From Chrysomallon squamiferum (lineage: Eukaryota > Animalia > Mollusca): DNA of 64,000 nucleotides. The stretch spans positions 3,906,001-3,970,000 of the forward strand of contig CM022674.1 in NCBI GenBank assembly GCA_012295275.1. The letters run 5' to 3'. Positions 34,512-63,276 of this stretch are shown piece by piece. Under the pieces are notes generated by a model. The model saw only the letters and a list, made by a program, of their open reading frames with translations. It was not told where the DNA came from and searched no databases. How positions within the stretch are numbered: the stretch's first letter is position 1; every line of letters starts with the position of its first letter. A program made the translations under genes and the position numbers.

Positions 34512-34571
<60 letters not shown>

Positions 34572-34825: not shown

Positions 34826-34873
<48 letters not shown>

Positions 34874-35822: not shown

Positions 35823-35880
<58 letters not shown>

Positions 35881-36094: not shown

Positions 36095-36134
<40 letters not shown>

Positions 36135-40493: not shown

Positions 40494-40894
40494 TTATCCC
40501 TTTCTTCCACAACGTCTTCCACGACCACCACGACGTCCCCAAGCACTGGTACATCCCAGCAGAGAACCTGAATAAAAATTACATTAACATTTTTGTATTT
40601 ATTTATTTATAATAATGTTATGTAGGTCAGTAACAAGAATATATAATATTTTAAAACCATAATTGTCTGCGTGGAACGTGAAACAATTAATTTGTACGTA
40701 AAATATAACTTTACCATCCATTATTTTAATAATTTATATATTACATTTTGTAGATTAATGTCCAAATAAATAAATATATATCGATTTCATGAATAGGATT
40801 TCTTAGGTATTATAAATTGAAAAATAAATAAATAAATAAATAAACAAATGAACTCACCAATGGAAAGAATCAAAATCAAAGCAGCTATCTTCAT
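40494..40894 (-). CDS. Putative 36-aa secreted Gly/Arg-rich cationic peptide precursor (two coding exons)
   Basis: Exon 40894-40858 (AAAATG context, GTGAGT donor) plus exon 40567-40494 (TTTTATTCAG acceptor, matching phase 1) gives MKIAALILILSIGSLLGCTSA-WGRRGGRGRRCGRKG*. Confidence 0.7.
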
Positions 40895-41774
40895 TTTGTA
40901 CAATTTTGTTATCAGTTATCTCTGTACGTTCGTTTGTCTGTACGTCTGTAGCTCTTACCCTTGGTTTACAGAAGTGAAACCAGTTTGATCTACGATGCCT
41001 GGTGATCTCTATTTATTCACATCAGAGCGGATGTTACGTAATGGTCTCGTGCTGATGTCGTCTAGTTCGTGCGGTTACGTCATGTCGTTCTGTAAGATGC
41101 AGTTCATTTCTAAATACAGAACACCGCTGTCACTGCAGTCGTCGTTGTGGTTGTGGTTTTTGTTATAATAAAGAGATGAGCAGGTGCACACATCGGTTGC
41201 AGTATTTAGTTTTAAACGGAACAGGAGTTCAAAGTCACCTGACTGACACCAATGGCGTCTTATCAGTGGTAGTGAAGTGATACATCTGGAATCGCGGTTG
41301 TCACCAGGTTTCAAACAGCAGTGGTGAGCGAGGAAGTGACGAAACGATTATTTAAATCTGTCACTTTAAATATATATATATATATATATATTCCAACTGG
41401 CTGACAGCAGTGTATTTTGACTTAACACTGCGGCTTGTACCATTTAATAACATTTATTAAAGACGTAACTTTGGAAATAAATTGTCTGATATTTATTATA
41501 TTTATTTCCTTGTTCTTCTTGATGTAGATTTTCGTAGCTGTTCTTGTAATTGTAGTTGTAGTTGTTGTTGCTGTTGCTGCTGCGATTATTGTTAGTCTTT
41601 CTTTAATTTTGTTTATGTGTATTAAAAGATGAGTGATTCGTGTTCATGCCTGAATTACTGTGATTCTTCAGATTATCCAATACATTATTTCCCATTCCAG
41701 TTTTATATACCAAAAGCTCTCATCAATTTCTTTCTTTTTTATCCCACATAGTTTTATTGTATTTTAGTACCACA

Positions 41775-42694
41775 TTCCATCTTTAATATAACAAAAATAA
41801 ATACCTATTCTTATAGAAGCCAGTATCTTTGCAGTTCATGTTGTCATTGGTGACTAAGGCGCTTGTTTAAGACACCAGTCTCTATTGATGCAGTCGTTTT
41901 AGACAAAAATCACACACATGTAAAATACAGATCTTATGTGAAAAAAATGTTGTAGAAATGGGAAGATACGTACTTATATTGAAAATATTATAGAGTACCA
42001 GTGAATGTGAAATCAGCAAAAATGACTTGAGATGCAAATTAGCATGAATGACTGACATTTGGAAAAGATAACAGTGACAAGTTATAAGAAGACAAACGCG
42101 TGCTCGTCTTTGAAGCTGAAATAAAAACTGATTTAACAAAGAGCGACTTAGATATCAAGTAAGAAAAGCTAAAACTGACGAATCTGAAAGGCAAATAGAA
42201 ACGGCTTAAACGCTAAAAGATATTAAACTCTCCGTAGTACATACGCTGACATTTGTATAAATGGTGAAAGGAAAACGACTGCATTCCGCCATGTCAATGA
42301 CACGTTAAAGGTGAGATACAATTTATGTCATCGGTGGTCTATGGTAGAATCACTGATTGACCAGGTTCAATTGATCGATGATATTGATTCATTTTCTTCT
42401 TTTTCTTTGTTTTGCAAATATTCCAAGAAAATATTAGGCGAAAATGAAATAAACACGCTCAGTAAAGATATTTGGTCTATAATTACTTTGGTATAAACAC
42501 GCATTCCATTATTCCACGTTTACGTTTTGAGAAAGTAAGTCATAATTTGCAGCACTACCACTGTTAGAAACTGCATAGATTACGTAACAACAATTGCATG
42601 ACGTCATTAACTATTCTTGTTTTCTCAGACATCATTTAATAAACATAACATTTAATGTTAAAATACATTTTGTTTTTTAACTGAAGTTGAAGGG

Positions 42695-42730
<36 letters not shown>

Positions 42731-43550
42731 TATCTTACGCTTCTGTACATGTTTATCGCATAGGAACTTCCAGTTAGGATAGAGTCGGGTGTGAACGAGA
42801 TTCACTTCAGCTTCCGCTTTGAAAAGTTTTAAAGAAAGAAGTGCATTGTTTTAGTTAAAATATCTTCGGCAGAAAAAATTGGAGTGACTGATTTAAGAAA
42901 GGAAACAACGAAGAAAAAGTGTTTTAAGAAGAAATCCGATCATAAATGTTCAGGTCAACAGTTAAAAAAAGTCACCAGGTTACAGAATAATTACGTAAGT
43001 GATCTGGTGTATAATTATATTGATTACCCATATGACTATTGACCATATAACTTTTGGGAGGATACCATTATACTCATGCGTTTGTAGAAATGAACCGAAT
43101 AATTGCGAATTTACAACGGCTATATTTTCATTTTTTGAGACAAGTGAGATTTGAAATTTATAATTTGAAAGGAAAATATTAATTTTTGGATCAATTTTAC
43201 ATATGTCTGAAAATCAGAAATCAGATAGAAGGTAAACTTAGTTAATGAACATAATAATATCATGCGTTAAAGGTCAGATACAATTTATATGAAACATCGG
43301 TGGTCAAGTTATCAGAAGACAAACGCGTGCTCGTCTTTCAAGCTGAAATGAAAACTGATTTAACAAAGAGCGAGTTAGATATCAAGTAAGAAAACCTTAA
43401 CCTGGCGAATCTTAAAGACAAATAGAAACTGCTTAAACGCTAAAAGATATTAAAGTCTCCGTAATACATACATTTCCATAAGCAGTGAAAGGAAAACGAC
43501 TGCATACTCCAATGTCAATGACACATTAAAGGTGAGAAACAATTTATGTG
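41775..43550 (+). pseudogene. Degenerate edge units of the tRNA array: tRNA-Leu fragment (~41850-41883), tRNA-Gly pseudogene (~42328-42380), truncated tRNA-Gly 5' end (~43293-43306)
   Basis: ctaaggcgcttgtttaagacaccagtctc; catcggtggtctatggtagaat...ggttcaatt..tcgatg; spacer homologies such as gacaaacgcgtgctcgtctttgaagctgaaat. Confidence 0.8.
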
Positions 43551-43552
43551 AA

Positions 43553-43623
43553 GCATCGGTGGTCTAGTGGTAGAATACTCGCCTGCCACGCGGGTGACCC
43601 GGGTTCAATTCCCGGTCGATGCA
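43553..43623 (+). tRNA. tRNA-Gly(GCC)
   Basis: GCATCGGTGGTCTAGTGGTAGAATACTCGCCTGCCACGCGGGTGACCCGGGTTCAATTCCCGGTCGATGCA. Confidence 0.9.
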
Positions 43624-44103
43624 CATACGTTTCACTTTTCTTTCTCTTTTGCATGAACATACTAAGAAATATGCAGTTGATATGTTTCCACGGAGAAAGT
43701 AATAATTTGTGACAGTTAGAGGCGTAACAACAATTGGATGACGTCATTAACCAGTCGTGCATATTCAAGTTGAGTTTTTGCGTCCTCGAATTTCCCAGTA
43801 ACGGGCAAGTGCGCAGTGGATTGTGAAATATTTCTGTTCTATAAAACAACGCCCTATAATGGACATTAATATATGTCTTTAATTTGTTTACTAAAATGTC
43901 ACGTGACAGTACACTCAATAAATATATAAACATATATGGTCCTGTTCGTTTGTTAATCTAGCTTTTCAAAAAAACTGCAATCAGCCTACGTATTTTCGTT
44001 GTAAAAGTCTTAAATGTAATGTTATAATATTAAGCGTTTTAAATACCGAATGATAAAAAGGTTGTTCAGGAGGCAGTTTCTTTCATACACGTTTTTTGTT
44101 ACA

Positions 44104-44185
44104 GGTAGCGTGGCCGAGCGGTCTAAGGCGCTGGTTTTAGGCACCAGTCTCCTCGGAGGCGTGGGTTCGAATCCCACCGCTGCCA
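44104..44185 (+). tRNA. tRNA-Leu(TAG)
   Basis: Array copy, loop TTTAGGC. Confidence 0.9.
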
Positions 44186-44702
44186 AATAGCTCGCAAGTG
44201 AGCTGATTCGTTTTGCAACAGAGAGAACGAGAGGAAAATTTTTTCCTGAAGTGACGTTTTGAAAACCAATAGGAACCTGGGGTACTCGGTAAAGAAAAAC
44301 TCAATTTATACTTCATTTTTATTTTCTTATTTTATTTATTTTCTAATTTCGAAAACATAATGGACAGTGACATCGAAACCGAAATTATCGAAATTGAACG
44401 AGATAGCAATTAGCATGATTCGCTGAAGTCAGAAAAACATAAGAGTGACAAGTTTTCACCAGACAAATGCGTGCTCGTCTTTGAAACTGAAATGAAAACT
44501 GATTTAACAAAGAGCGAGTTAGATATCAAGTAACAAAAGCTTATCCTGACGAATCTTAAAGACAAATAGAAACTGCTTGAAAGGTAAAAAGGATTACACT
44601 TTCCGTAGTACATACACTGACATTTGTATAAATGGTGAAAGGAAAACGACTGCATTCCGCCATGTCAATGACACGTTAAAGGTGAGATACAATTTATGTG
44701 AA

Positions 44703-44773
44703 GCATCGGTGGTCTAGTGGTAGAATACTCGCCTGCCACGCGGGTGACCCGGGTTCAATTCCCGGTCGATGCA
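44703..44773 (+). tRNA. tRNA-Gly(GCC)
   Basis: Array copy. Confidence 0.9.
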
Positions 44774-45111
44774 CATACGTTTCACTTTTTTTTCTTTCTC
44801 TTTTGCATGAAATATGTAGGCTAAAATTGATTAATTACATTCAGATAAAATGTCTTTTAATCTATTACGAATATGCACTTCACTGATTGATAAGTTTTGA
44901 TCTGATATTGATCAATCTATTGTAAATGTCGACGATATCACATACGAAGTGATACCAGGTTTCTTCTTTCATATCATGATTATACGAAAACATTCGGTTT
45001 CGTTAACTCAACAATATTGACTTCCCAAATTTCGTTCCATCTTTAATATAACATGAATAAATACATTTTGTTCTGTTGATTCCAGTATGTTTACAACCTG
45101 CTATTGTTTAT

Positions 45112-45193
45112 GGTAGCGTGGCCGAGCGGTCTAAGGCGCTGGTTTAAGGCACCAGTCTCCTCGGAGGCGTGGGTTCGAATCCCACCGCTGCCA
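45112..45193 (+). tRNA. tRNA-Leu(AAG)
   Basis: Array copy, loop TTAAGGC. Confidence 0.9.
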
Positions 45194-45706
45194 AAGAGCT
45201 CGTGGGTGAGCTGATTAATTTTGCTTCGAAACGAAAGAATACGTCAGAACTGACATTTTTCAAAACGAATGGCAAGCTGGGGTACTCGGTTAAGAAAACA
45301 TCAATTTAGGCTATATTTTCATATTTTTTAATTTATTTTTTATTTTCTAATTTCGAAAATATAATGGACAATGACATCGAAACCGAAATTAGCGAAATTG
45401 AGCGACATAAAAATTAACATGAATCGCTGACGTTAGAAAAAGATAACAGTGACAAGTTATCAGAAGACAAACGCGTGCTCGTCTTTGAAGCTGAAATGAA
45501 AACTGATTTAACAAAGAGCGAGTTAGATATCAAGTAACAAAAGCTTATCCTGACGAATCTTAAAGACAAATAGAAACTGCTTGAAAGGTAAAAAGGATTA
45601 CACTTTCCGTAGTACATACACTGACATTTGTATAAATGGTGAAAGGAAAACGACTGCATTCCGCCATGTCAATGACACGTTAAAGGTGAGATACAATTTA
45701 TGTGAA

Positions 45707-45777
45707 GCATCGGTGGTCTAGTGGTAGAATACTCGCCTGCCACGCGGGTGACCCGGGTTCAATTCCCGGTCGATGCA
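45707..45777 (+). tRNA. tRNA-Gly(GCC)
   Basis: Array copy. Confidence 0.9.
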
Positions 45778-46093
45778 CATACGTTTCACTTTTCTTTCTC
45801 TTTTGCATGAAATATGTAGGATAAAATGTCTTTTAATCGATTACGAATATGCACTTCACTGTTCCAGATTGATAAGTTTTGATCTGATATTGATCAATCT
45901 ATTGTAAATGTCGACGATATCACATACGAAGTGATACCAGGTTTCTTCTTTCATATCATGATTATACGAAAACATTCGGTTTCGTTAACTCAACAATATT
46001 GACTTCTCAAATTTCGTTCCATCTTTAATATAACATGAATAAATACATTTCGCTCTATTGATTCCAGTATGTTTACAACCTGCTATTGTTTAT

Positions 46094-46175
46094 GGTAGCG
46101 TGGCCGAGCGGTCTAAGGCGCTGGTTTAAGGCACCAGTGTCCTCGGAGGCGTGTGTTCGAATCCCACCGCTGCCA
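46094..46175 (+). tRNA. tRNA-Leu(AAG) variant with variable-arm and T-stem substitutions (possibly defective)
   Basis: cagtGtcctcggaggcgtgTgttcgaat versus consensus cagtCtcctcggaggcgtgGgttcgaat. Confidence 0.7.
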
Positions 46176-46672
46176 AAGAGCTCGTGGGTGAGCTGATTAA
46201 TTTTGCTTCGAAACGAAAGAATACTTCAGAACTGACATTTTCAAAACGAATGGCAAGCTGGGGTACTCGGTTAAGAAAACATCAATTTAGGCTATATTTT
46301 CATATTTTTTAATTTATTTTTTATTTTCTAATTTCGAAAATATAATGGACAATGACATCGAAACCGAAATTAGCGAAATTGAACGAGATAAAAATTAACA
46401 TGAATCGCTGACGTCAGAAAAAGAGAACAGTGTCAAGTTATCAGAAGACAAACGCGTGCTCGTCTTTGAAGCTGAAATGAAAACTGATTTAACAAACAGA
46501 GAGTTAGATATCAGGTAAGAAAAGCTAAAACTGACGAATCTTAAAGACAAGTAGAAACTGCTTGAAAGGTAAAAAATGATTAAACTTTCCGTAGTACATA
46601 AATGGTGAAAGGAAAACGACTGAATTCCGCCGTGTCAATGACACGTTAAAGGTGAGATACAATTTACGTGAA

Positions 46673-46743
46673 GCATCGGTGGTCTAGTGGTAGAATACTC
46701 GCCTGCCACGCGGGTGACCCGGGTTCAATTCCCGGTCGATGCA
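46673..46743 (+). tRNA. tRNA-Gly(GCC), intact, overlapping the left copy of the 127-bp target duplication
   Basis: Array copy. Confidence 0.9.
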
Positions 46744-46822
46744 CATACGTTTCACTTTTCTTTCTCTTTTGCATGAATATACTAAGAAATATGCAGCTGA
46801 TATGTTTCCACGTAGAAAATAA

Positions 46823-48285
46823 AGCCAGTTTGCCCCCCAGGTGCAACAGTATCTGTAGCTAACACCGAATCTGAATATTCACATAATATTCATGGTAAAA
46901 CTATTAGCATACAAGATACTAGTGTTATATGTCAGTCTTTTTTTTTTTTTTTATTATTTTATTGCTTCTTGTTCTTAGTGTAAATATTACTATCAAGTTT
47001 ACCAGATCTCTAACTTGCAGCTTTCATAGACAGTTGTTTTCAGCTACTTATTGGATTTCTCCGGCAGTCAGTATAGCTCAAAAGCAAAATTACTGTGCTG
47101 TTGTTTCTCAAGTTTCAGCTTGGCTTGTGTTTTTACCTTGGTGTTAGAATTATTTTCAGACAGATTTGTGAAAAGGCATTATAATTCATGGACGTTTTTT
47201 TTTTTTTTTAAATATTTCATTGTTGAGTTAGTGATTGTGTTTCTTAACGTGCAAAGACAATAAGGAATATTGTACCCAGCTTTTAAAGGAAAAATCAGCA
47301 GTTTTTGATGAAAGTGTTAAAGAATGAATACAAGTGTTTTGTTGTGTACAAATACAAAATGTATAAAGGTGTTGTCTAATCAAGAGGAGAGCACCAGTTT
47401 TTCTACTTTCAAAATGAGTGTTTGTGGTGTTTTTACATCACTTTATCTTCAAGTATAAAGACTGGATTTTAAATGAGATCTTTGTCAGCTTTTCAAAAAC
47501 AACTGAAAAGGAAAATGAGAGGAAACTGGATGTGAACAAAGATTGAGATTATATCAAAGAAAGAGAAGAGGAGGAACTGAAACATTTACATAAACAAAAG
47601 TCTTCTTTCTTTTTCTTTTTTTTTTTTTGAATGTGTGTTTCAAAGCTTCTAGCATGAGAAATGCTTTGTGGACATTACTGCAGTGTGGTTTTCAAAGAAG
47701 ATAAATATTAATATACGAACATGGAAGGAGGTGAAATTGCTACAGCTGGAATAACAGGGATCCAGGAACAGATGCATTTACTAATAAATTATTTGTTACT
47801 TGCAAACTGTGATGATTTTACCACTGAAGAAGAAAATACTTGTGACAGATTTAAAATTAAAATAATATTAAAATGTACATATTGTGATAATAAAATGTTG
47901 AAATCTTTTATACATTTCCAAATGATTCAGTAATAATAAAGTACAATCATGATATCAGTAACTCTACTAAAGACCCATTTCATTCAAATCCACTTCATTA
48001 ATATAGAGTTATGTTTTATATTTCCCATTTTAAAATGTTCAAACTGGATTATTAATCTTGTGCAATTTTGAAATGTGACTCATTTAATTTGACCACCATT
48101 TTAACATGTTCACCATTATGTTTACACTTATTTTAATGTTTTTAATTTTATGTCCATGTCTTTTTATATTTTGTTTTATTACTCTGTGAAGCACCCTTGA
48201 ACTTACTTAGTATGGAAAAAGTGCTATATAAATATATAGAATAATAATAATAATAATAATAAAGAAATTCTCCTCAAATGATGTG

Positions 48286-48316
<31 letters not shown>
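46823..48316 (+). mobile_element. ~1.5-kb poly(A)-tailed retroposed insert whose 3' junction is in the tRNA-Gly D-arm; 127-bp target-site duplication
   Basis: AATAAA 48258-48263, A26 48291-48316; 46696-46822 repeated at 48317-48443; empty paralogous site at the 50580 unit. Confidence 0.85.
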
Positions 48317-48364
48317 TACTCGCCTGCCACGCGGGTGACCCGGGTTCAATTCCCGGTCGATGCA
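48317..48364 (+). pseudogene. 3' two-thirds of tRNA-Gly(GCC), part of the target-site duplication
   Basis: Begins at TACTCGCC directly after poly(A). Confidence 0.9.
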
Positions 48365-48801
48365 CATACGTTTCACTTTTCTTTCTCTTTTGCATGAATA
48401 TACTAAGAAATATGCAGCTGATATGTTTCCACGTAGAAAATAATTATTTGTGACAGTTAGAGGCTTAACAACAATTGGATGACGTCATTAACCAGTCGTG
48501 CATATTGAAGTTGAGTTTTTGCGTCCTCGAATTTCCCAGTAACGGGCACGTGCGCAGTGGACTTTAATATATGTCTTTAATTTGTTTACTAAAATGTCAC
48601 GTGACAATACACTCAATAAATATATAAACATATATGGTCCTGTTCGTTTGTTAATCTAGCGTTTCAAAAAAACTGCAGTCAGCCTACGTATTTTCGTTGT
48701 AAAAGTCTTAAATATAATGTTATAATATTAAGCGTTTTAAATAGCGAATGATAAAAAGGTTGTTCAGGAGGCAGTATCTTTCATACACGTTTTTTGTTAC
48801 A

Positions 48802-48883
48802 GGTAGCGTGGCCGAGCGGTCTAAGGCGCTGGTTTTAGGCACCAGTCTCCTCGGAGGCGTGGGTTCGAATCCCACCGCTGCCA
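48802..48883 (+). tRNA. tRNA-Leu(TAG)
   Basis: Array copy. Confidence 0.9.
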
Positions 48884-49593
48884 AATAGCTCGCAAGTGAG
48901 CTGATTCGTTTTGCAACAGAGAGAACGAGAGGAAAGAATTTTCCTGAAGTGACGTTTTGAAAACCAATAGGAAGCTTAGGTATTCGGTAAAGAAAAACTC
49001 AATTTATACTTCATTTTTATTTTCTAATTTTATTTATTTTCTAATTTCGAAAACATCATGGACAGTGACATCGAAACCGAAATTATCGAAATTGAACGAG
49101 ATAGAGCAATTAGCATGATTCGCTGAAGTCAGAAAAAAGATAAGAGTGACAAGTTTTCACCAGACAAATGCGTGCTCGTCTTTGAAGCTGAAATGAAAAC
49201 TGATTTAACAAAGAGCGAGTTAGATATCAAGTAACAAAAGCTTATCCTGACGAATCTTAAAGACAAATAGAAACTGCTTGAAAGGTAAAAAGGATTACAC
49301 TTTCCGTAGTACATACACTGACATTTGTATAAATGGTGAAAGGAAAACGACTGCATTCCGCCATGTCAATGACACGTTAAAGGTGAAAACTGATTTAACA
49401 AAGAGCGAGTTAGATATCAAGTAACAAAAGCTTATCCTGACGAATCTTAAAGACAAATAGAAACTGCTTGAAAGGTAAAAAGGATTACACTTTCCGTAGT
49501 ACATACACTGACATTTGTATAAATGGTGAAAGGAAAACGACTGCATTCCGCCATGTCAATGACACGTTAAAGGTGAGATACAATTTATGTGAA

Positions 49594-49664
49594 GCATCGG
49601 TGGTCTAGTGGTAGAATACTCGCCTGCCACGCGGGTGACCCGGGTTCAATTCCCGGTCGATGCA
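49594..49664 (+). tRNA. tRNA-Gly(GCC)
   Basis: Array copy. Confidence 0.9.
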
Positions 49665-50000
49665 CATACGTTTCACTTTTCTTTCTCTTTTTTGCATGAA
49701 ATATGTAGGCTAAAATTGATTAATTACATTCAGATAAAATGTCTTTTAATCTATTACGAATATGCACTTCACTGATTGATAAGTTTTGATCTGATATTGA
49801 TCAATCTATTGTAAATGTCGACGATATCACATACGAAGTGATACCAGGTTTCTTCTTTCATATCATGATTATACGAAAACATTCGGTTTCGTTAACTCAA
49901 CAATATTGACTTCCCAAATTTCGTTCCATCTTTAATATAACATGAATAAATACATTTTGCTCTATTGATTCCAGTATGTTTACAACCTGCTATTGTTTAT

Positions 50001-50082
50001 GGTAGCGTGGCCGAGCGGTCTAAGGCGCTGGTTTAAGGCACCAGTCTCCTCGGAGGCGTGGGTTCGAATCCCACCGCTGCCA
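50001..50082 (+). tRNA. tRNA-Leu(AAG)
   Basis: Array copy. Confidence 0.9.
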
Positions 50083-50579
50083 AAGAGCTCGTGGGTGAGC
50101 TGATTAATTTTGCTTCGAAACGAAAGAATACTTCAGAACTGACATTTTCAAAACGAATGGCAAGCTGGGGTACTCGGTTAAGAAAACATCAATTTAGGCT
50201 ATATTTTCATATTTTTTAATTTATTTTTTATTTTCTAATTTCGAAAATATAATGGACAATGACATCGAAACCGAAATTAGCGAAATTGAACGAGATAAAA
50301 ATTAACATGAATCGCTGACGTCAGAAAAAGAGAACAGTGTCAAGTTATCAGAAGACAAACGCGTGCTCGTCTTTGAAGCTGAAATGAAAACTGATTTAAC
50401 AAACAGAGAGTTAGATATCAGGTAAGAAAAGCTAAAACTGACGAATCTTAAAGACAAGTAGAAACTGCTTGAAAGGTAAAAAATGATTAAACTTTCCGTA
50501 GTACATAAATGGTGAAAGGAAAACGACTGAATTCCGCCGTGTCAATGACACGTTAAAGGTGAGATACAATTTATGTGAA

Positions 50580-50650
50580 GCATCGGTGGTCTAGTGGTAG
50601 AATACTCGCCTGCCACGCGGGTGACCCGGGTTCAATTCCCGGTCGATGCA
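50580..50650 (+). tRNA. tRNA-Gly(GCC)
   Basis: Array copy; empty-site paralog of the 46673 locus. Confidence 0.9.
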
Positions 50651-51087
50651 CATACGTTTCACTTTTCTTTCTCTTTTGCATGAATATACTAAGAAATATG
50701 CAGCTGATATGTTTCCACGTAGAAAATAATTATTTGTGACAGTTAGAGGCTTAACAACAATTGGATGACGTCATTAACCAGTCGTGCATATTGAAGTTGA
50801 GTTTTTGCGTCCTCGAATTTCCCAGTAACGGGCACGTGCGCAGTGGACTTTAATATATGTCTTTAATTTGTTTACTAAAATGTCACGTGACAATACACTC
50901 AATAAATATATAAACATATATGGTCCTGTTCGTTTGTTAATCTAGCGTTTCAAAAAAACTGCAGTCAGCCTACGTATTTTCGTTGTAAAAGTCTTAAATA
51001 TAATGTTATAATATTAAGCGTTTTAAATAGCGAATGATAAAAAGGTTGTTCAGGAGGCAGTATCTTTCATACACGTTTTTTGTTACA

Positions 51088-51169
51088 GGTAGCGTGGCCG
51101 AGCGGTCTAAGGCGCTGGTTTTAGGCACCAGTCTCCTCGGAGGCGTGGGTTCGAATCCCACCGCTGCCA
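51088..51169 (+). tRNA. tRNA-Leu(TAG)
   Basis: Array copy. Confidence 0.9.
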
Positions 51170-51876
51170 AATAGCTCGCAAGTGAGCTGATTCGTTTTGC
51201 AACAGAGAGAACGAGAGGAAAGAATTTTCCTGAAGTGACGTTTTGAAAACCAATAGGAAGCTTAGGTATTCGGTAAAGAAAAACTCAATTTATACTTCAT
51301 TTTTATTTTCTAATTTTATTTATTTTCTAATTTCGAAAACATCATGGACAGTGACATCGAAACCGAAATTATCGAAATTGAACGAGATAGCAATTAGCAT
51401 GATTCGCTGAAGTCAGAAAAAGATAAGAGTGACAAGTTTTCACCAGACAAATGCGTGCTCGTCTTTGAAGCTGAAATGAAAACTGATTTAACAAAGAGCG
51501 AGTTAGATATCAAGTAACAAAAGCTTATCCTGACGAATCTTAAAGACAAATAGAAACTGCTTGAAAGGTAAAAAGGATTACACTTTCCGTAGTACATACA
51601 CTGACATTTGTATAAATGGTGAAAGGAAAACGACTGCATTCCGCCATGTCAATGACACGTTAAAGGTGAAAACTGATTTAACAAAGAGCGAGTTAGATAT
51701 CAAGTAACAAAAGCTTATCCTGACGAATCTTAAAGACAAATAGAAACTGCTTGAAAGGTAAAAAGGATTACACTTTCCGTAGTACATACACTGACATTTG
51801 TATAAATGGTGAAAGGAAAACGACTGCATTCCGCCATGTCAATGACACGTTAAAGGTGAGATACAATTTATGTGAA

Positions 51877-51947
51877 GCATCGGTGGTCTAGTGGTAGAAT
51901 ACTCGCCTGCCACGCGGGTGACCCGGGTTCAATTCCCGGTCGATGCA
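51877..51947 (+). tRNA. tRNA-Gly(GCC)
   Basis: Array copy. Confidence 0.9.
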
Positions 51948-52281
51948 CATACGTTTCACTTTTCTTTCTCTTTTGCATGAAATATGTAGGCTAAAATTGA
52001 TTAATTACATTCAGATAAAATGTCTTTTAATCTATTACGAATATGCACTTCACTGATTGATAAGTTTTGATCTGATATTGATCAATCTATTGTAAATGTC
52101 GACGATATCACATACGAAGTGATACCAGGTTTCTTCTTTCATATCATGATTATACGAAAACATTCGGTTTCGTTAACTCAACAATATTGACTTCCCAAAT
52201 TTCGTTCCATCTTTAATATAACATGAATAAATACATTTTGCTCTATTGATTCCAGTATGTTTACAACCTGCTATTGTTTAT

Positions 52282-52363
52282 GGTAGCGTGGCCGAGCGGT
52301 CTAAGGCGCTGGTTTAAGGCACCAGTCTCCTCGGAGGCGTGGGTTCGAATCCCACCGCTGCCA
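52282..52363 (+). tRNA. tRNA-Leu(AAG)
   Basis: Array copy. Confidence 0.9.
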
Positions 52364-52860
52364 AAGAGCTCGTGGGTGAGCTGATTAATTTTGCTTCGAA
52401 ACGAAAGAATACGTCAGAACTGACATTTTTCAAAACGAATGGCAAGCTGGGGTACTCGGTTAAGAAAACATCAATTTAGGCTATATTTTCATATTTTTTA
52501 ATTTATTTTTTATTTTCTAATTTCGAAAATATAATGGACAATGACATCGAAACCGAAATTAGCGAAATTGAGCGACATAAAAATTAACATGAATCGCTGA
52601 CGTCAGAAAAAGATAACAGTGACAAGTTATCAGAAGACAAACGCGTGCTCGTCTTTGAAGCTGAAATGAAAACTGATTTAACAAAGAGCGAGTTAGATAT
52701 CAAGTAACAAAAGGTTAAACTGACGAATCTTAAAGACAAATAGAAACTGCTTGAAAGGTGAAAAGGATTAAACTTTCCGTAGTACATACATGGTGAAAGG
52801 AAAACGACTGCATTCCGCCATGTCAATGACACGTTAAAGGTGAGATACAATTTATGTGAA

Positions 52861-52931
52861 GCATCGGTGGTCTAGTGGTAGAATACTCGCCTGCCACGCG
52901 GGTGACCCGGGTTCAATTCCCGGTCGATGCA
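52861..52931 (+). tRNA. tRNA-Gly(GCC)
   Basis: Array copy. Confidence 0.9.
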
Positions 52932-53256
52932 CATACGTTTCACTTTTCTTTCTCTTTTGCATGAAATATGTAGGATAAAATTGATTTTAATCAGATTAAA
53001 ATATGCAATCTATTACTATGCACTTCACTGATTGATAAGTTTTGATCTGATATTGATCAATCTATTGTAAATGTCGACGATATCACATACGAAGTGATAC
53101 CAGGTTTCTTCTTTCATATCATGATTATACGAAAACATTCGGTTTCGTTAACTCAACAATATTGACTTCCCAAATTTCGTTCCATCTTTAATATAACATG
53201 AATAAATACATTTTGTTCTGTTGATTCCAGTATGTTTACAACCTGCTATTGTTTAT

Positions 53257-53338
53257 GGTAGCGTGGCCGAGCGGTCTAAGGCGCTGGTTTAAGGCACCAG
53301 TCTCCTCGGAGGCGTGGGTTCGAATCCCACCGCTGCCA
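53257..53338 (+). tRNA. tRNA-Leu(AAG)
   Basis: Array copy. Confidence 0.9.
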
Positions 53339-53834
53339 AAGAGCTCGTGGGTGAGCTGATTAATTTTGCTTCGAAACGAAAGAATACGTCAGAACTGACG
53401 TATTCAAAACGAATGGCAAGCTGGGGTACTCGGTTAAGAAAACATCAATTTAGGCTATATTTTCATTTTTTTTTAATGATTTTTTATTTTCTAATTTCGA
53501 AAATATAATGGACAATGACATCGAAACCGAAATTAGCGAAATTGAGCGACATAAAAATTAACATGAATCGCTGACGTCAGAAAAAGATAACAGTGACAAG
53601 TTATCAGAAGACAAACGCGTGCTCGTCTTTGAAGCTGAAATGAAAACTGATTTAACAAAGAGCGAGTTAGATATCAAGTAAGAAAAGGTAAAACTGACGA
53701 ATGTTAAAGACAAATAGAAACTGCTTGAAAGGTGAAAAGGATTAAACTTTCCGTAGTACATAAATGGTGAAAGGAAAACGACTGCATTCCGCTATGTCAA
53801 TGACACGTTAAAGGTGAGATACAATTTATGTGAA

Positions 53835-53905
53835 GCATCGGTGGTCTAGTGGTAGAATACTCGCCTGCCACGCGGGTGACCCGGGTTCAATTCCCGGTCG
53901 ATGCA
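53835..53905 (+). tRNA. tRNA-Gly(GCC)
   Basis: Array copy. Confidence 0.9.
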
Positions 53906-54239
53906 CATACGTTTCACTTTTCTTTCTCTTTTGCATGAAATATGTAGGCTAAAATTGATTAATTACATACAGATAAAATGTCTTGTAATCTATTACGAAT
54001 ATGCACTTCACTGATTGATAAGTTTTGATCTGATATTGATCAATCTATTGTAAATGTCGACGATATCAAATACGATGTGATACCAGGTTTCTTCTTTCAT
54101 ATCATGATTATACGAAAACATTCGGTTTCGTTAACTCAACAATATTGACTTCCCAAATTTCGTTCCATCTTTAATATAACATGAATAAATACATTTTGTT
54201 CTGTTGATTCCAGTATGTTTACAACCTGCTATTGTTTAT

Positions 54240-54321
54240 GGTAGCGTGGCCGAGCGGTCTAAGGCGCTGGTTTAAGGCACCAGTCTCCTCGGAGGCGTGG
54301 GTTCGAATCCCACCGCTGCCA
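54240..54321 (+). tRNA. tRNA-Leu(AAG)
   Basis: Array copy. Confidence 0.9.
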
Positions 54322-54833
54322 AAGAGCTCGTGGGTGAGCTGATTAATTTTGCTTCGAAACGAAAGAATACGTCAGAACTGACGTATTCAAAACGAATGGC
54401 AAGCTGGGGTACTCGGTTAAGAAAACATCAATTTAGGCTATATTTTCATTTTTTTTTAATGATTTTTTATTTTCTAATTTCGAAAATATAATGGACAATG
54501 ACATCGAAACCGAAATTAGCGAAATTGAGCGACATAAAAATTAACATGAATCGCTGACGTCAGAAAAAGATAACAGTGACAAGTTATCAGAAGACAAACG
54601 CGTGCTCGTCTTTGAAGCTGAAATGAAAACTGATTTAACAAAGAGCGAGTTAGATATCAAGTAAGAAAAGGTAAAACTGACGAATGTTAAAGACAAATAG
54701 AAACTGCTTGAAAGGTAAAAAGGATTAAACTTTCCGTAGTACATACACTGACATTTGTATAAATGGTGAAAGGAAAACGACTGCATTCCGCCATGTCAAT
54801 GACACGTTAAAGGTGAGATACAATTTATGTGAA

Positions 54834-54904
54834 GCATCGGTGGTCTAGTGGTAGAATACTCGCCTGCCACGCGGGTGACCCGGGTTCAATTCCCGGTCGA
54901 TGCA
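54834..54904 (+). tRNA. tRNA-Gly(GCC)
   Basis: Array copy. Confidence 0.9.
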
Positions 54905-55238
54905 CATACGTTTCACTTTTCTTTCTCTTTTGCATGAAATATGTAGGCTAAAATTGATTAATTACATACAGATAAAATGTCTTGTAATCTATTACGAATA
55001 TGCACTTCACTGATTGATAAGTTTTGATCTGATATTGATCAATCTATTGTAAATGTCGACGATATCAAATACGATGTGATACCAGGTTTCTTCTTTCATA
55101 TCATGATTATACGAAAACATTCGGTTTCGTTAACTCAACAATATTGACTTCCCAAATTTCGTTCCATCTTTAATATAACATGAATAAATACATTTTGTTC
55201 TGTTGATTCCAGTATGTTTACAACCTGCTATTGTTTAT

Positions 55239-55320
55239 GGTAGCGTGGCCGAGCGGTCTAAGGCGCTGGTTTAAGGCACCAGTCTCCTCGGAGGCGTGGG
55301 TTCGAATCCCACCGCTGCCA
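55239..55320 (+). tRNA. tRNA-Leu(AAG)
   Basis: Array copy. Confidence 0.9.
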
Positions 55321-55815
55321 AAGAGCTCGTGGGTGAGCTGATTAATTTTGCTTCGAAACGAAAGAATACGTCAGAACTGACGTATTCAAAACGAATGGCA
55401 AGCTGGGGTACTCGGTTAAGAAAACATCAATTTAGGCTATATTTTCATTTTTTTAATTAATTTTTTATTTTCTAATTTCGAAAATATAATGGACAATGAC
55501 ATCGAAACCGAAATTAGCGAAATTGAGCGACATAAAAATTAACATGAATCGCTGACGTCAGAAAAAGATAACAGTGACAAGTTATCAGAAGACAAACGCG
55601 TGCTCGTCTTTGAAGCTGAAATGAAAACTGATTTAACAAAGAGCGAGTTAGATATCAAGTAAGAAAAGGTAAAACTGACGAATGTTAAAGACAAATAGAA
55701 ACTGCTTGAAAGGTGAAAAGGATTAAACTTTCCGTAGTACATAAATGGTGAAAGGAAAACGACTGCATTCCGCTATGTCAATGACACGTTAAAGGTGAGA
55801 TACAATTTATGTGAA

Positions 55816-55886
55816 GCATCGGTGGTCTAGTGGTAGAATACTCGCCTGCCACGCGGGTGACCCGGGTTCAATTCCCGGTCGATGCA
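55816..55886 (+). tRNA. tRNA-Gly(GCC)
   Basis: Array copy. Confidence 0.9.
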
Positions 55887-56220
55887 CATACGTTTCACTT
55901 TTCTTTCTCTTTTGCATGAAATATGTAGGCTAAAATTGATTAATCACATTCAGATAAAATGTCTTGTAATCTATTACGAATATGCACTTCACTGATTGAT
56001 AAGTTTTGATCTGATATTGATCAATCTATTGTAAATGTCGACGATATCACATACGAAGTGATACCAGGTTTCTTCTTTCATATCATGATTATACGAAAAC
56101 ATTCGGTTTCGTTAACTCAACAATATTGACTTCCCAAATTTCGTTCCATCTTTAATATAACATGAATAAATACATTTTGTTCTGTTGATTCCAGTATGTT
56201 TACAACCTGCTATTGTTTAT

Positions 56221-56302
56221 GGTAGCGTGGCCGAGCGGTCTAAGGCGCTGGTTTAAGGCACCAGTCTCCTCGGAGGCGTGGGTTCGAATCCCACCGCTGC
56301 CA
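56221..56302 (+). tRNA. tRNA-Leu(AAG)
   Basis: Array copy. Confidence 0.9.
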
Positions 56303-56827
56303 AAGAGCTCGTGGGTGAGCTGATTAATTTTGCTTCGAAACGAAAGAATACGTCAGAACTGACGTATTCAAAACGAATGGCAAGCTGGGGTACTCGGTTA
56401 AGAAAACATCAATTTAGGCTATATTTTCATTTTTTTTTAATGATTTTTTATTTTCTAATTTCGAAAATATAATGGACAATGACATCGAAACCGAAATTAG
56501 CGAAATTGAGCGACATAAAAATTAACATGAATCGCTGACGTCAGAAAAAACAGTGACAAGTTATCAGAAGACAAACGCGTGCTCGTCTTTGAAAATGGTC
56601 GAAGCTGAAATGAAAACTGAAAACTGATTTAACAAAGAGCGAGTTAGATATCAAGTAAGAAAAGCTAAAACTGACGAATCTTAAAGACAAATAGAAACTG
56701 CTTGAAAGGTAAAAAGGATTACACTTTCCGTAGTACATACACTGACATTTGTATAAATGGTGAAAGGAAAACGACTGCATTCCGCCATGTCAATGACACG
56801 TTAAAGGTGAGATACAATTTATGTGAA

Positions 56828-56898
56828 GCATCGGTGGTCTAGTGGTAGAATACTCGCCTGCCACGCGGGTGACCCGGGTTCAATTCCCGGTCGATGCA
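56828..56898 (+). tRNA. tRNA-Gly(GCC)
   Basis: Array copy; empty-site paralog of the split 58960 locus. Confidence 0.9.
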
Positions 56899-57377
56899 CA
56901 TACGTTTCACTTTTGTTTTTCTTTTGCATGAATATACTAAGAAATATGCAGTTGATATGTTTTCACGGAGAAAGTAATAATTTGTGACAGTTAGAGGCTT
57001 AACAACAATTGGATGACGTCATTAACCAGTCGTGCATATTCAAGTTGAGTTTTTGCGTCCTCGAATTTCCCAGTAACGGGCACGTGCGCAGTGGATTTTG
57101 AAATACTTCTGTTCTATATAACAACGCCCTATAATGGACATTAATATATGTCTTTACTTGTTTACTAAAATGTCACGTGACAATACACTCAATAAATATA
57201 TAAACATATATGGTCCTGTTCGTTTGTTAATCTAGCGTTTCAAAAAAACTGCAGTCAGCCTACGTATTTTCGTTGTAAAAGTCTTAAATACAATGTTATA
57301 ATATTAAGCGTTTTAAATAGCGAATGATAAAAAGGTTGTTCAGGAGGCAGTATCTTTCATACACGTTTTTTGTTACA

Positions 57378-57459
57378 GGTAGCGTGGCCGAGCGGTCTAA
57401 GGCGCTGGTTTTAGGCACCAGTCTCCTCGGAGGCGTGGGTTCGAATCCCACCGCTGCCA
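57378..57459 (+). tRNA. tRNA-Leu(TAG)
   Basis: Array copy. Confidence 0.9.
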
Positions 57460-57976
57460 AATAGCTCGCAAGTGAGCTGATTCGTTTTGCAACAGAGAGA
57501 ACGAGAGGAAAGAATTTTCCTGAAGTGACGTTTTGAAAACCAATAGGAACCTGGGGTATATGGTAAAGAAAAACTCAATTTATACTTCATTCTTATTTTC
57601 TTATTTTATTTGTTTTCTAATTTCGAAAACATAATGGACAGTGACATCGAAACCGAAATTATCGAAATTGAACGAGATAGCAATTAGCATCATTCGCTGA
57701 AGTCAGAAAAAGATAAGAGTGACAAGTTTTCACCAGACAAATGCGTGCTCGTCTTTGAAGCTGAAATGAAAACTGATTTAACAAAGAGCGAGTTAGATAT
57801 CAAGTAAGAAAAGCTTATCCTGACGAATGTTAAAGACAAATAGAAACTGCTTGAAAGGTAAAAAGGATTAAACTTTCCATAGTACATACACTGACATTTG
57901 TATAAATGGTGAAAGGAAAACGACTGCATTCCGCCATGTCAATGACACGTTAAAGGTGAGATACAATTTATGTGAA

Positions 57977-58047
57977 GCATCGGTGGTCTAGTGGTAGAAT
58001 ACTCGCCTGCCACGCGGGTGACCCGGGTTCAATTCCCGGTCGATGCA
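57977..58047 (+). tRNA. tRNA-Gly(GCC)
   Basis: Array copy. Confidence 0.9.
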
Positions 58048-58365
58048 CATACGTTTCACTTTTCTTTCTCTTTTGCATGAAATATGTAGGCTAAAATTGA
58101 TTAATCACATTCAGATAAAATGTCTTGTAATCTTCACTGATTGATAAGTTTTGATCTGATATTGATCAATCTATTGTAAATGTCGACGATATCACATACG
58201 AAGTGATACCAGGTTTCTTCTTTCATATCATGATTATACGAAAACATTCGGTTTCGTTAACTCAACAATATTGACTTCCCAAATTTCGTTCCATCTTTAA
58301 TATAACATGAATAAATACATTTTGTTCTGTTGATTCCAGTATGTTTACAACCTGCTATTGTTTAT

Positions 58366-58447
58366 GGTAGCGTGGCCGAGCGGTCTAAGGCGCTGGTTTA
58401 AGGCACCAGTCTCCTCGGAGGCGTGGGTTCGAATCCCACCGCTGCCA
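58366..58447 (+). tRNA. tRNA-Leu(AAG)
   Basis: Array copy. Confidence 0.9.
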
Positions 58448-58959
58448 AAGAGCTCGTGGGTGAGCTGATTAATTTTGCTTCGAAACGAAAGAATACGTCA
58501 GAACTGACGTATTCAAAACGAATGGCAAGCTGGGGTACTCGGTTAAGAAAACATCAATTTAGGCTATATTTTCATTTTTTTTTAATGATTTTTTATTTTC
58601 TAATTTCGAAAATATAATGGACAATGACATCGAAACCGAAATTAGCGAAATTGAGCGACATAAAAATTAACATGAATCGCTGACGTCAGAAAAAGATAAC
58701 AGTGACAAGTTATCAGAAGACAAACGCGTGCTCGTCTTTGAAGCTGAAATGAAAACTGATTTAACAAAGAGCGAGTTAGATATCAAGTAAGAAAAGCTAA
58801 AACTGACGAATCTTAAAGACAAATAGAAACTGCTTGAAAGGTAAAAAGGATTACACTTTCCGTAGTACATACACTGACATTTGTATAAATGGTGAAAGGA
58901 AAACGACTGCATTCCGCCATGTCAATGACACGTTAAAGGTGAGATACAATTTATGTGAA

Positions 58960-59355
58960 GCATCGGTGGTCTAGTGGTAGAATGTATCAGTGCTTTAAAA
59001 TCATTCTAAATCAATATCGTATTCAAAACAAACTTTCAATTTTTATTAACAAATATGTTAAGAACAATATTTTCCTAGAACTAAAAGATGACATACTTAT
59101 TTTCAAATATCCTTTGGAAAGCTACAAATAATCAATAAAGATAAATCATGGAAATGGATAAAAGAATTAATACTATAAAATACTGTAAATATATATGGAT
59201 ATTCCGAATAAATAAGTATGCATGCATGTGAGTGTGAATGAGTGTGACTGAGTGTGTGAGAGGAAATAGTTTTTGTTATTGTTATTTACAGCTGTAATTT
59301 TATTTTAATTGTGTACAACTGGTGATTATACTAATAAAGATAAAAAAAAGCGTCA

Positions 59356-59386
<31 letters not shown>

Positions 59387-59437
59387 GAATACTCGCCTGC
59401 CACGCGGGTGACCCGGGTTCAATTCCCGGTCGATGCA
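58960..59437 (+). pseudogene. tRNA-Gly(GCC) split by a retro-insertion (58960-58983 and 59387-59437)
   Basis: 5' part ends GGTAGAAT; 3' part restarts GAATACTC after poly(A). Confidence 0.9.
58984..59386 (+). mobile_element. 5'-truncated non-LTR retrotransposon (Tx1/L1-like ORF2 C-terminus, 3'UTR, poly(A)) inserted in tRNA-Gly; TSD (A)GAAT
   Basis: Open frame 58985-59131 YQCFKIILNQYRIQNKLSIFINKYVKNNIFLELKDDILIFKYPLESYK*; AATAAA 59333-59338; A8; tRNA-Lys-like tag; A24; 4-5 bp TSD. Clade assignment is by recalled pattern only. Confidence 0.8.
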
Positions 59438-59916
59438 CATACGTTTCACTTTTGTTTTTCTTTTGCATGAATATACTAAGAAATATGCAGTTGATATGTT
59501 TTCACGGAGAAAGTAATAATTTGTGACAGTTAGAGGCTTAACAACAATTGGATGACGTCATTAACCAGTCGTGCATATTCAAGTTGAGTTTTTGCGTCCT
59601 CGAATTTCCCAGTAACGGGCACGTGCGCAGTGGATTTTGAAATACTTCTGTTCTATATAACAACGCCCTATAATGGACATTAATATATGTCTTTACTTGT
59701 TTACTAAAATGTCACGTGACAATACACTCAATAAATATATAAACATATATGGTCCTGTTCGTTTGTTAATCTAGCGTTTCAAAAAAACTGCAGTCAGCCT
59801 ACGTATTTTCGTTGTAAAAGTCTTAAATACAATGTTATAATATTAAGCGTTTTAAATAGCGAATGATAAAAAGGTTGTTCAGGAGGCAGTATCTTTCATA
59901 CACGTTTTTTGTTACA

Positions 59917-59998
59917 GGTAGCGTGGCCGAGCGGTCTAAGGCGCTGGTTTTAGGCACCAGTCTCCTCGGAGGCGTGGGTTCGAATCCCACCGCTGCCA
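59917..59998 (+). tRNA. tRNA-Leu(TAG)
   Basis: Array copy. Confidence 0.9.
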
Positions 59999-60513
59999 AA
60001 TAGCTCGCAAGTGAGCTGATTCGTTTTGCAACAGAGAGAACGAGAGGAAAGAATTTTCCTGAAGTGACGTTTTGAAAACCAATAGGAACCTGGGGTATTC
60101 GGTAAAGAAAAACTCAATTTATACTTCATTCTTATTTTCTTATTTTATTTGTTTTCTAATTTCGAAAACATAATGGACAGTGACATCGAAACCGAAATTA
60201 TCGAAATTGAACGAGATAGCAATTAGCATCATTCGCTGAAGTCAGAAAAATAAAAGTGACAAGTTTTCACCAGACAAATGCGTGCTCGTCTTTGAAGCTG
60301 AAATGAAAACTGATTTAACAAAGAGCGAGTTAGATATCAAGTAAGAAAAGCTTATCCTGACGAATGTTAAAGACAAATAGAAACTGCTTGAAAGGTAAAA
60401 AAGATTAAACTTTCCATAGTACATACACTGACATTTGTATAAATGGTGAAAGGAAAACGACTGCATTCCGCCATGTCAATGACACGTTAAAGGTGAGATA
60501 CAATTTATGTGAA

Positions 60514-60584
60514 GCATCGGTGGTCTAGTGGTAGAATACTCGCCTGCCACGCGGGTGACCCGGGTTCAATTCCCGGTCGATGCA
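60514..60584 (+). tRNA. tRNA-Gly(GCC)
   Basis: Array copy. Confidence 0.9.
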
Positions 60585-60902
60585 CATACGTTTCACTTTT
60601 CTTTCTCTTTTGCATGAAATATGTAGGCTAAAATTGATTAATCACATTCAGATAAAATGTCTTGTAATCTTCACTGATTGATAAGTTTTGATCTGATATT
60701 GATCAATCTATTGTAAATGTCGACGATATCACATACGAAGTGATACCAGGTTTCTTCTTTCATATCATGATTATACGAAAACATTCGGTTTCGTTAACTC
60801 AACAATATTGACTTCCCAAATTTCGTTCCATCTTTAATATAACATGAATAAATACATTTTGTTCTGTTGATTCCAGTATGTTTACAACCTGCTATTGTTT
60901 AT

Positions 60903-60984
60903 GGTAGCGTGGCCGAGCGGTCTAAGGCGCTGGTTTAAGGCACCAGTCTCCTCGGAGGCGTGGGTTCGAATCCCACCGCTGCCA
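60903..60984 (+). tRNA. tRNA-Leu(AAG)
   Basis: Array copy. Confidence 0.9.
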
Positions 60985-61495
60985 AAGAGCTCGTGGGTGA
61001 GCTGATTAATTTTGCTTCGAAACGAAAGAATACGTCAGAACTGACGTATTCAAAACGAATGGCAAGCTGGGGTACTCGGTTAAGAAAACATCAATTTAGG
61101 CTATATTTTCATTTTTTTTTAATGATTTTTTATTTTCTAATTTCGAAAATATAATGGACAATGACATCGAAACCGAAATTAGCGAAATTGAACGACATAA
61201 AATTAACATGAATCGCTGACGTCAGAAAAAGATAACAGTGACAAGTTATCAGAAGACAAACGCGTGCTCGTCTTTGAAGCTGAAATGAAAACTGATTTAA
61301 CAAAGAGCGAGTTAGATATCAAGTAAGAAAAGCTAAAACTGACGAATCTTAAAGACAAATAGAAACTGCTTGAAAGGTAAAAAGGATTACACTTTCCGTA
61401 GTACATACACTGACATTTGTATAAATGGTGAAAGGAAAACGACTGCATTCCGCCATGTCAATGACACGTTAAAGGTGAGATACAATTTATGTGAA

Positions 61496-61566
61496 GCATC
61501 GGTGGTCTAGTGGTAGAATACTCGCCTGCCACGCGGGTGACCCGGGTTCAATTCCCGGTCGATGCA
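61496..61566 (+). tRNA. tRNA-Gly(GCC)
   Basis: Array copy. Confidence 0.9.
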
Positions 61567-61884
61567 CATACGTTTCACTTTTCTTTCTCTTTTGCATGAA
61601 ATATGTAGGCTAAAATTGATTAATCACATTCAGATAAAATGTCTTGTAATCTTCACTGATTGATAAGTTTTGATCTGATATTGATCAATCTATTGTAAAT
61701 GTCGACGATATCACATACGAAGTGATACCAGGTTTCTTCTTTCATATCATGATTATACGAAAACATTCGGTTTCGTTAACTCAACAATATTGACTTCCCA
61801 AATTTCGTTCCATCTTTAATATAACATGAATAAATACATTTTGTTCTGTTGATTCCAGTATGTTTACAACCTGCTATTGTTTAT

Positions 61885-61966
61885 GGTAGCGTGGCCGAGC
61901 GGTCTAAGGCGCTGGTTTAAGGCACCAGTCTCCTCGGAGGCGTGGGTTCGAATCCCACCGCTGCCA
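61885..61966 (+). tRNA. tRNA-Leu(AAG), recombinant unit with TAG-type 3' flank
   Basis: AAG-type 5' flank and anticodon, but the 3' flank is atagctcgcaagtgagc. Confidence 0.9.
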
Positions 61967-62672
61967 AATAGCTCGCAAGTGAGCTGATTCGTTTTGCAAC
62001 AGAGAGAACGAGAGGAAAGAATTTTCCTGAAGTGACGTTTTGAAAACCAATAGGAACCTGGGGTATTCGGTAAAGAAAAACTCAATTTATACTTCATTTT
62101 TATTTTCTTATTTTATTTATTTTCTAATTTCGAAAACATCATGGACAGTGACATCGAAACCGAAATTATCGAAATTGAACGAGATAGCAATTAGCATCAT
62201 TCGCTGAAGTCAGAAAAAGATAAGAGTGACAAGTTTTCACCAGACAAATGCGTGCTCGTCTTTGAAGCTGAAATGAAAACTGATTTAACAAAGAGCGAGT
62301 TAGATATCAAGTAAGAAAAGCTTATCCTGACGAATCTTAAAGACAAATAGAAACTGCTTGAAAGGTAAAAAGGATTACACTTTCCGTAGTACATACACTG
62401 ACATTTGTATAAATGGTGAAAGGAAAACGACTGCATTCCGCCATGTCAATGACACGTTAAAGGTGAAAACTGATTTAACAAAGAGCGAGTTAGATATCAA
62501 GTAACAAAAGCTTATCCTGACGAATCTTAAAGACAAATAGAAACTGCTTGAAAGGTAAAAAGATTACACTTTCCATAGTACATACACTGACATTTGTATA
62601 AATGGTGAAAGGAAAACGACTGCATTCCGCCATGTCAATGACACGTTAAAGGTGAGATACAATTTATGTGAA

Positions 62673-62743
62673 GCATCGGTGGTCTAGTGGTAGAATACTC
62701 GCCTGCCACGCGGGTGACCCGGGTTCAATTCCCGGTCGATGCA
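62673..62743 (+). tRNA. tRNA-Gly(GCC)
   Basis: Array copy. Confidence 0.9.
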
Positions 62744-63076
62744 CATACGTTTCACTTTTTTTTCTTTTTGCATGAAATATGTAGGCTAAAATTGATTAAT
62801 TACATTCAGATAAAATGTCTTTTAATCTATTACGAATATGCACTTCACTGATTGATAAGTTTTGATCTGATATTGATCAATCTATTGTAAATGTCGACGA
62901 TATCACATACGAAGTGATACCAGGTTTCTTCTTTCATATCATGATTATACGAAAACATTCGGTTTCGTTAACTCAACAATATTGACTTCCCAAATTTCGT
63001 TCCATCTTTAATATAACATGAATAAATACATTTTGCTCTATTGATTCCAGTATGTTTACAACCTGCTATTGTTTAT

Positions 63077-63158
63077 GGTAGCGTGGCCGAGCGGTCTAAG
63101 GCGCTGGTTTAAGGCACCAGTCTCCTCGGAGGCGTGGGTTCGAATCCCACCGCTGCCA
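63077..63158 (+). tRNA. tRNA-Leu(AAG)
   Basis: Array copy. Confidence 0.9.
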
Positions 63159-63276
63159 AAGAGCTCGTGGGTGAGCTGATTAATTTTGCTTCGAAACGAA
63201 AGAATACGTCAGAACTGACATTTTTCAAAACGAATGGCAAGCTGGGGTACTCGGTTAAGAAAACATCAATTTAGGC

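Follow-up and report, generated by a model that had tools for sequence, protein, structure and literature searches.

The window, meaning the whole 64,000-nucleotide stretch of Chrysomallon squamiferum DNA that was analysed, carries 36 called tRNA genes, and in its right third tRNA-Gly(GCC) and tRNA-Leu genes form a tandem array. Between lone tRNA-Leu genes and this array, positions 33500-39460 hold exon-like pieces of what we take, by eye, to be an SLC22-like membrane transporter gene, and at 63279-64000 the array end adjoins the apparent start of what is presumably a hAT-type DNA transposon. The array and its two insertions, of which the one at 59 kb splits a tRNA-Gly gene, comprise the following features, all on the plus strand:

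40172..63159, plus strand: tandem tRNA-Gly(GCC)/tRNA-Leu array, host to both poly(A)-tailed insertions, with 16 intact tRNA-Gly genes
46823..48314, plus strand: second insert with a poly(A) tail, not related to the first by sequence; this tail joins tRNA-Gly at position 23-25
58960..58983, plus strand: tRNA-Gly(GCC), 5' part of the split gene, as read in the window sequence
58985..59131, plus strand: last 48 codons of a 5'-truncated ORF2 of the endonuclease, reverse transcriptase and zinc-finger type, 51-63% identical to the C-termini of relatives
59132..59341, plus strand: 3' UTR of the element, ending in AATAAA (59333-59338) and GAT; multicopy in 4/4 runs
59342..59349, plus strand: first tail, A8, probably the genomic tail of the donor copy; its last A may be tRNA-Lys position 23
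59350..59362, plus strand: 13-mer resembling tRNA-Lys(UUU) positions 24-36, a putative transduced donor flank
59363..59386, plus strand: second tail, A24, which begins 24 nt past AATAAA
59387..59438, plus strand: tRNA-Gly(GCC), 3' part of the split gene, resuming at G22, with A21 ambiguous with the tail

The insert at 59 kb shows a poly(A) tail, 5' truncation and an altered target site. Its target-site duplication reads AGAAT (5 bp when the last A of the tail is counted, otherwise 4), and the left copy lies at 58979-58983, the last two bases of which (58982-58983) are common to the element and form a microhomology. The first 147 bases of the insert are an open frame of 48 codons. Contigs assembled from DNA runs cover the insert in all four runs and in several variants, with non-tRNA loose ends before 58982; therefore, the family is multicopy and the insert is one of its 5'-truncated members, joined via a 2-base microhomology. 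Read-contig depth over the insert is not a copy number, and the tail region with its loose ends was left out of the comparison, zero depth there being no finding. An Rfam scan of 58900-59500 gave chance-level matches only.

Other traces of such elements are present in the window. At 31219-31323, some 130 bp downstream of a tRNA-Leu (31006-31090) and in no tRNA gene, lies an older copy of this ORF2 end with 82% identity; a stretch of T36 comes after it at 31362-31397. The array spacer at 58149-58220 holds a decayed ORF2 piece of 20-24 codons from the same retrotransposon group as the insert (58-75% identical), and this piece recurs in at least eight more array units, for example at 44895-44966 and 62860-62931; it is an old insertion that is now part of the homogenised repeat unit. 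In addition, a decayed tRNA-Gly at 42329-42350 stops following the gene sequence beyond GGTAGAAT, at the position of the insertion, and is possibly a target-site scar.

When the 48-residue peptide was compared by HMMER with 1.84 billion proteins, four matches were obtained, three of them C-termini 57-63% identical to it. This peptide shares 58% of its residues with the C-terminal end of the 1295-residue protein P0012 which, along with P0046 and P0176, is an intact ORF2. The relative P0006 contains the domains PF03372/PF14529, PF00078 and PF13966 of an ORF2 with endonuclease, reverse transcriptase and zinc finger; the first two activities are read in relatives, the window copy being the truncated 48-residue end. 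Among the best 120 matches listed, the named relatives come from Patella, Mytilus and a sea cucumber, from which a mollusc host was judged likely. No relative was found in the viral contigs searched. A scan of prokaryote assemblies gave 41 loci, of which those inspected in depth appear to be contigs of animal hosts that were binned together with symbionts. Several such bacterial bins (L144, L147-L156, L162-L164, L170) hold apparent animal host contigs in which tRNA, U1/U2/5S or U5 arrays are found together with retrotransposons, and the closest other loci, L145 and L148, come without flanks. In a quick reverse transcriptase tree of 52 rows, built with no named references or outgroup and leaving out L218 and short loci, the family groups with a support of 99 among proteins that include a 5S-inserted element, the U5- and U2-inserted ones lying further out and the deep nodes being weak. 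The window element works like Tx1, and its formal membership of this clade is likely rather than firm. A Dada or other DNA transposon was ruled out by the ORF2-type C-terminus and the poly(A) tails, Dada elements having a DDE transposase and no such tail.

Between the two tails lies the 13-mer at 59350-59362, which occurs once in the window when both strands are checked. Together with the A before it and the two As after it (59349-59364), it matches human tRNA-Lys3 at 15 of 16 letters over positions 23-38, the reference sequence coming from a primer table in the available part of PMC3832253. The matched part corresponds to the end of the D stem, the 5' strand of the anticodon stem and the loop. 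This bears out, with human tRNA-Lys3 as the reference, the 15/16 match to human tRNA-Lys(UUU) at about positions 23-38 on which the initial annotation was built. For a human-type 13-mer, taken from locus L076, the 59350 site is the sole window position within two mismatches. With all 63 distinct fetched 13-mers as queries, five of 127,976 window positions were within one mismatch, the 59350 site being one of them. Of 122 matches of tRNA-Lys type in viral contigs, three came within one mismatch of the 13-mer and none was identical to it. When an animal tRNA-Lys(UUU) carrying G26 was sought, only phage, giant-virus and bacterial genes along with animal tRNA-Lys(CUU) turned up, and no animal tRNA-Lys(UUU) was found in the accessible portions of the supplements of PMC10886601 and PMC8869645.

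The match to tRNA-Lys is significant because of its place and register, not its length, with a rough p of ~2e-4 (60 tRNAs x 5 offsets, uniform composition). Against this value, a chance likeness, or an assembly error between the two A-runs, is highly improbable, although three of the 16 matching letters are As supplied by the tails, at four further window positions a fetched tRNA-Lys 13-mer fits with no more than one mismatch and none of the listed contigs spans the junction. Judged by its letters, the 13-mer likely derives from tRNA-Lys(UUU).

The order of the parts, namely the element, a first tail, the foreign 13-mer and a second tail, all within one duplication, is the layout of a 3' transduction. 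The double tail reported at the outset, AATAAA-GAT-A8, then the 13-mer, A24 and the tRNA-Gly 3' part, was indeed found at 59333-59387. In run X2, a 163-base contig with a depth of 327 fits 59192-59349 and carries five further letters outside the fit (one record, 304 records being unlisted). As read from this single contig record, whose extra letters are unseen, the major form in run X2 leaves the window sequence right after A8. An invariant element terminus, the finding that the initial annotation had itself set against a transduction, does not appear to be what the 13-mer is: the deepest X2 contig exits after A8 and a sister copy, at locus L144, is without it. On the same two observations, the 13-mer is probably not the normal end of the family.

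It might also be that a subfamily acquired its fixed end from an old transduction, in which case the 13-mer would still come from tRNA-Lys and the immediate parent need not be in a tRNA-Lys gene. The family has several diverged variants and the 13-mer shows one mismatch to the only animal tRNA-Lys(UUU) compared, the human one, both of which suit this alternative; it is nevertheless unlikely in view of the major X2 contig that leaves the window after A8 and of the sister copy without such a piece. Along the same line, the donor could have occupied a SINE head derived from tRNA-Lys, or a tRNA pseudogene, and not a working gene. The 13-mer is unable to separate a gene from a derived repeat and Tx1 families often target other elements, according to the consulted part of PMC4494074, but the anticodon stem strand and loop are intact and the DNA junctions seen are in true tRNA arrays, and a donor of this kind is decidedly unlikely.

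The position at which the tRNA-Lys piece begins can be compared with that of the insertion itself. In what we take to be standard tRNA numbering, the Lys piece starts at A23/G24 and the insertion at 59 kb resumes at A21/G22 of tRNA-Gly, and both junctions read ^AG. An identical GGTAG cut site in tRNA-Lys and tRNA-Gly, as first proposed, did not hold, the Lys piece beginning 2 nt further downstream; a G lost inside A8 would remove this offset. The register of the Lys piece is matched by the tRNA-Gly junction of the second insert. This insert, of about 1.5 kb, is flanked by a 129-bp duplication (46694-46822 = 48315-48443), has AATAAA 27 nt before its tail and contains no long frame. It also includes a stretch that presumably resembles an L2-type tail with (AAT)n, and it may represent a cellular RNA or a different element that was moved in trans. 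Its presence suggests that poly(A) RNAs besides that of the element arrive at this site, which gives some room to a template switch, with ORF2 copying a polyadenylated piece of tRNA-Lys before moving on to the element RNA. Such a switch is very unlikely, however, as it leaves two coincidences unexplained, namely a fragment start at most 2 nt from the target site and an end 24 nt past AATAAA.

The reading that we favour, with a probability of about 0.7, is that a Tx1-like retrotransposon lies in the D-loop/box-A of tRNA-Gly and that its 13 bases were probably carried along by 3' transduction from a parent in a tRNA-Lys(UUU) gene, as suggested by sequence comparison. Points that weigh against this reading are the 2-nt offset, the low identity (about 60%) of the family that supplies the sister evidence, and the location of the older copy at 31219-31323 away from tRNA coding sequence. 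The parent copy would have interrupted tRNA-Lys(UUU) at position 22/23 or 23/24, in the sense orientation, and would have had an A-tail of just 7-8 nt. Its RNA polymerase II transcript, in which AATAAA lies 3 nt before the tail, would have been cleaved 24-26 nt on, in the tRNA flank at the anticodon loop, and new poly(A) would have been added at the cleavage point inside the tRNA-Lys flank. Cleavage for polyadenylation normally takes place 10-30 nt downstream of AATAAA. The end point of the 13-mer is explained by this ordinary spacing, because the second tail starts 24 nt after AATAAA, and the role in ending the transcript that had been attributed to the UUUU anticodon loop is unneeded. Termination of RNA polymerase III at the anticodon U-run was considered and rejected: six earlier runs of at least four T are present in the 366 bp before A8, and 38 such runs in the 4.2-kb sister copy at L144, and with so many T-runs ahead of it the anticodon loop is an unlikely place for polymerase III to stop.

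In the favoured reading, ORF2 would then have nicked tRNA-Gly at GGT^AG or GGTA^G, with reverse transcription starting from the new tail, halting after about 380 nt and being followed by joining via the 2-nt microhomology. What the endonuclease recognises is likely the conserved box-A stretch GGT(N)AG, with a tolerance of about 2 nt. The history first proposed, a parent in a tRNA-Lys gene followed by a jump to tRNA-Gly, is thus retained for the Lys(UUU) origin of the 13-mer (15/16) and for the 3' transduction, but not for the identical site nor for the ending in the U-loop. A short tail on the donor is known to promote 3' transduction in R7Ag and R1Bm, as described in the part of PMC7265360 consulted.

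The targets of relatives bear on the wider claim that the element moves across tRNA isotypes. The sister family is about 60% identical to the window element and probably comes from another species. Its copy at L144 (96-98% identical to P0012; against the window insert, 58% at the amino acid level over 45 residues and 73% at the nucleotide level over 138 bp) lies in sense orientation in a tRNA-Asp(GTC) array. The 3' end of this copy reads AATAAA-AT-GAT-A13 and is directly followed by G22 of tRNA-Asp(GTC), with no extra piece between. At its 5' end the copy, which is truncated to 4.2 kb, begins after tRNA base 10, about 10 tRNA bases having been deleted, and the junction is one of 30 tRNA-Asp 3' halves on the contig. 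The site is the D-loop position of tRNA-Asp equivalent to that of the insertion in tRNA-Gly.

Two further cases rest on peptides, without DNA junctions. P0017, which falls in a 90% protein cluster with the sister family, starts with HRWSSGRILA, the frame of the window tRNA-Gly 5' part, before ORF2 residue 895. P0020, from the same cluster, starts with the frame of a tRNA-Lys(CUU) 3' end for which the reference came from other host contigs; this frame could equally lie in the 3' flank. These are two of the 23 members with non-ORF2 ends among 106 aligned, and the other 21 match none of 14 reference RNAs, a set that would miss other tRNA isotypes. Targeting across tRNA isotypes, as the initial annotation had claimed, is supported by the sister family in tRNA-Asp at the DNA level and by the tRNA-Gly and tRNA-Lys(CUU) frames at the peptide level.

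More distant relatives end at U2 (L151, L156, L175), U5 (L163) and 5S (L146) genes. A distant relative with 24-25% ORF2 identity was also observed between tRNA halves (L003 84-120 and 5653-5685, L004 5339-5390), in a gene split in the anticodon loop that we take, by eye, to be tRNA-Asn, the halves not being listed by Rfam; it is a second, separate tRNA-targeting lineage. For one more relative, at L170 (9540-9632), the end lies upstream of an intact tRNA-Gln(CTG) by a few bases, a position like that of the Dewa family. The U2, U5 and 5S locations correspond to targets known for the Tx1 clade in the accessible text of PMC4494074 and PMC3706591. A location in a tRNA gene was found for the one DNA junction of the sister family (1/1) and for one of the two window copies, a small sample against the Tx1 criterion of target preference, over 20% of flanks in a repeated sequence (PMC4494074, part consulted).

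In a broader reading, to which we give even odds, a mollusc Tx1-like group would read a box-A/D-loop motif and move freely among Gly, Asp and Lys arrays, its short-tailed copies would stamp the previous target into their offspring and the same machinery would drop unrelated poly(A) RNAs there. Short-tailed copies would record the previous tRNA target because the poly(A) signal sits right at the element end. Most described small-RNA-targeting retrotransposons are confined to one gene type each. If true, a Tx1-like endonuclease that accepts box A of several isotypes would illustrate how the range of targets grows and changes, and parent-to-offspring moves between isotypes could be traced through transduced tails in a single genome. 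Target specificity is directly testable with the intact ORF2 proteins mentioned above, and for site-specific insertion tools a target that is both conserved and redundant is the kind sought.

The known systems are compared here as they are described in the accessible parts of the cited sources. In these, no Tx1/L1-type family at the tRNA D-loop across isotypes was found and no transduced tRNA target either, although Repbase, Kojima and Fujiwara 2004 and the supplements of PMC4494074 may name one; the parts of PMC10294476 and PMC10886601 consulted added nothing on targets. Precedents exist for each part, that is for transduction, for tRNA targeting and for this position (planarian LIN15), and they limit the surprise. 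The target-specific families of the Tx1 clade include Keno in U2 snRNA, Mutsu in 5S rRNA and Dewa in the tRNA-Leu spacer (PMC4494074, PMC3706591). The window element is like them in the ORF2 of its relatives, with an apurinic-type endonuclease and reverse transcriptase, in its poly(A) tail and in its multicopy small-RNA gene targets, but it interrupts the coding part of the tRNA, at the D-loop/box A, and not a spacer, with junctions in more than one isotype. Non-LTR elements inside tRNA genes are represented by the planarian LIN15_SM and LIN25_SM and by NeSL-1_TV (PMC4640811). In two tRNA-Arg isoacceptors (CCG, CCT) the junction of LIN15_SM comes directly behind the D-loop, at roughly the position of the window insert, yet all three are NeSL-related, of the restriction-like endonuclease group, and have each been described for a single amino-acid isotype, whereas the relatives of the window element are of apurinic type. 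In the same way, Dada DNA transposons target tRNA box A, with Dada-tV found in Val, Gly, Ala and Asp, but they are DDE transposons that cut at nucleotides 8-13, with no RNA step and no tail (PMC8869645, PMC3706591). Finally, the 3' transductions of L1, R7Ag and R1Bm share the read-through past a short tail and the donor flank between two poly(A) tracts (PMC7265360); in contrast to these, the flank in the window insert would be the target gene of another isotype and would hence record a change of target.
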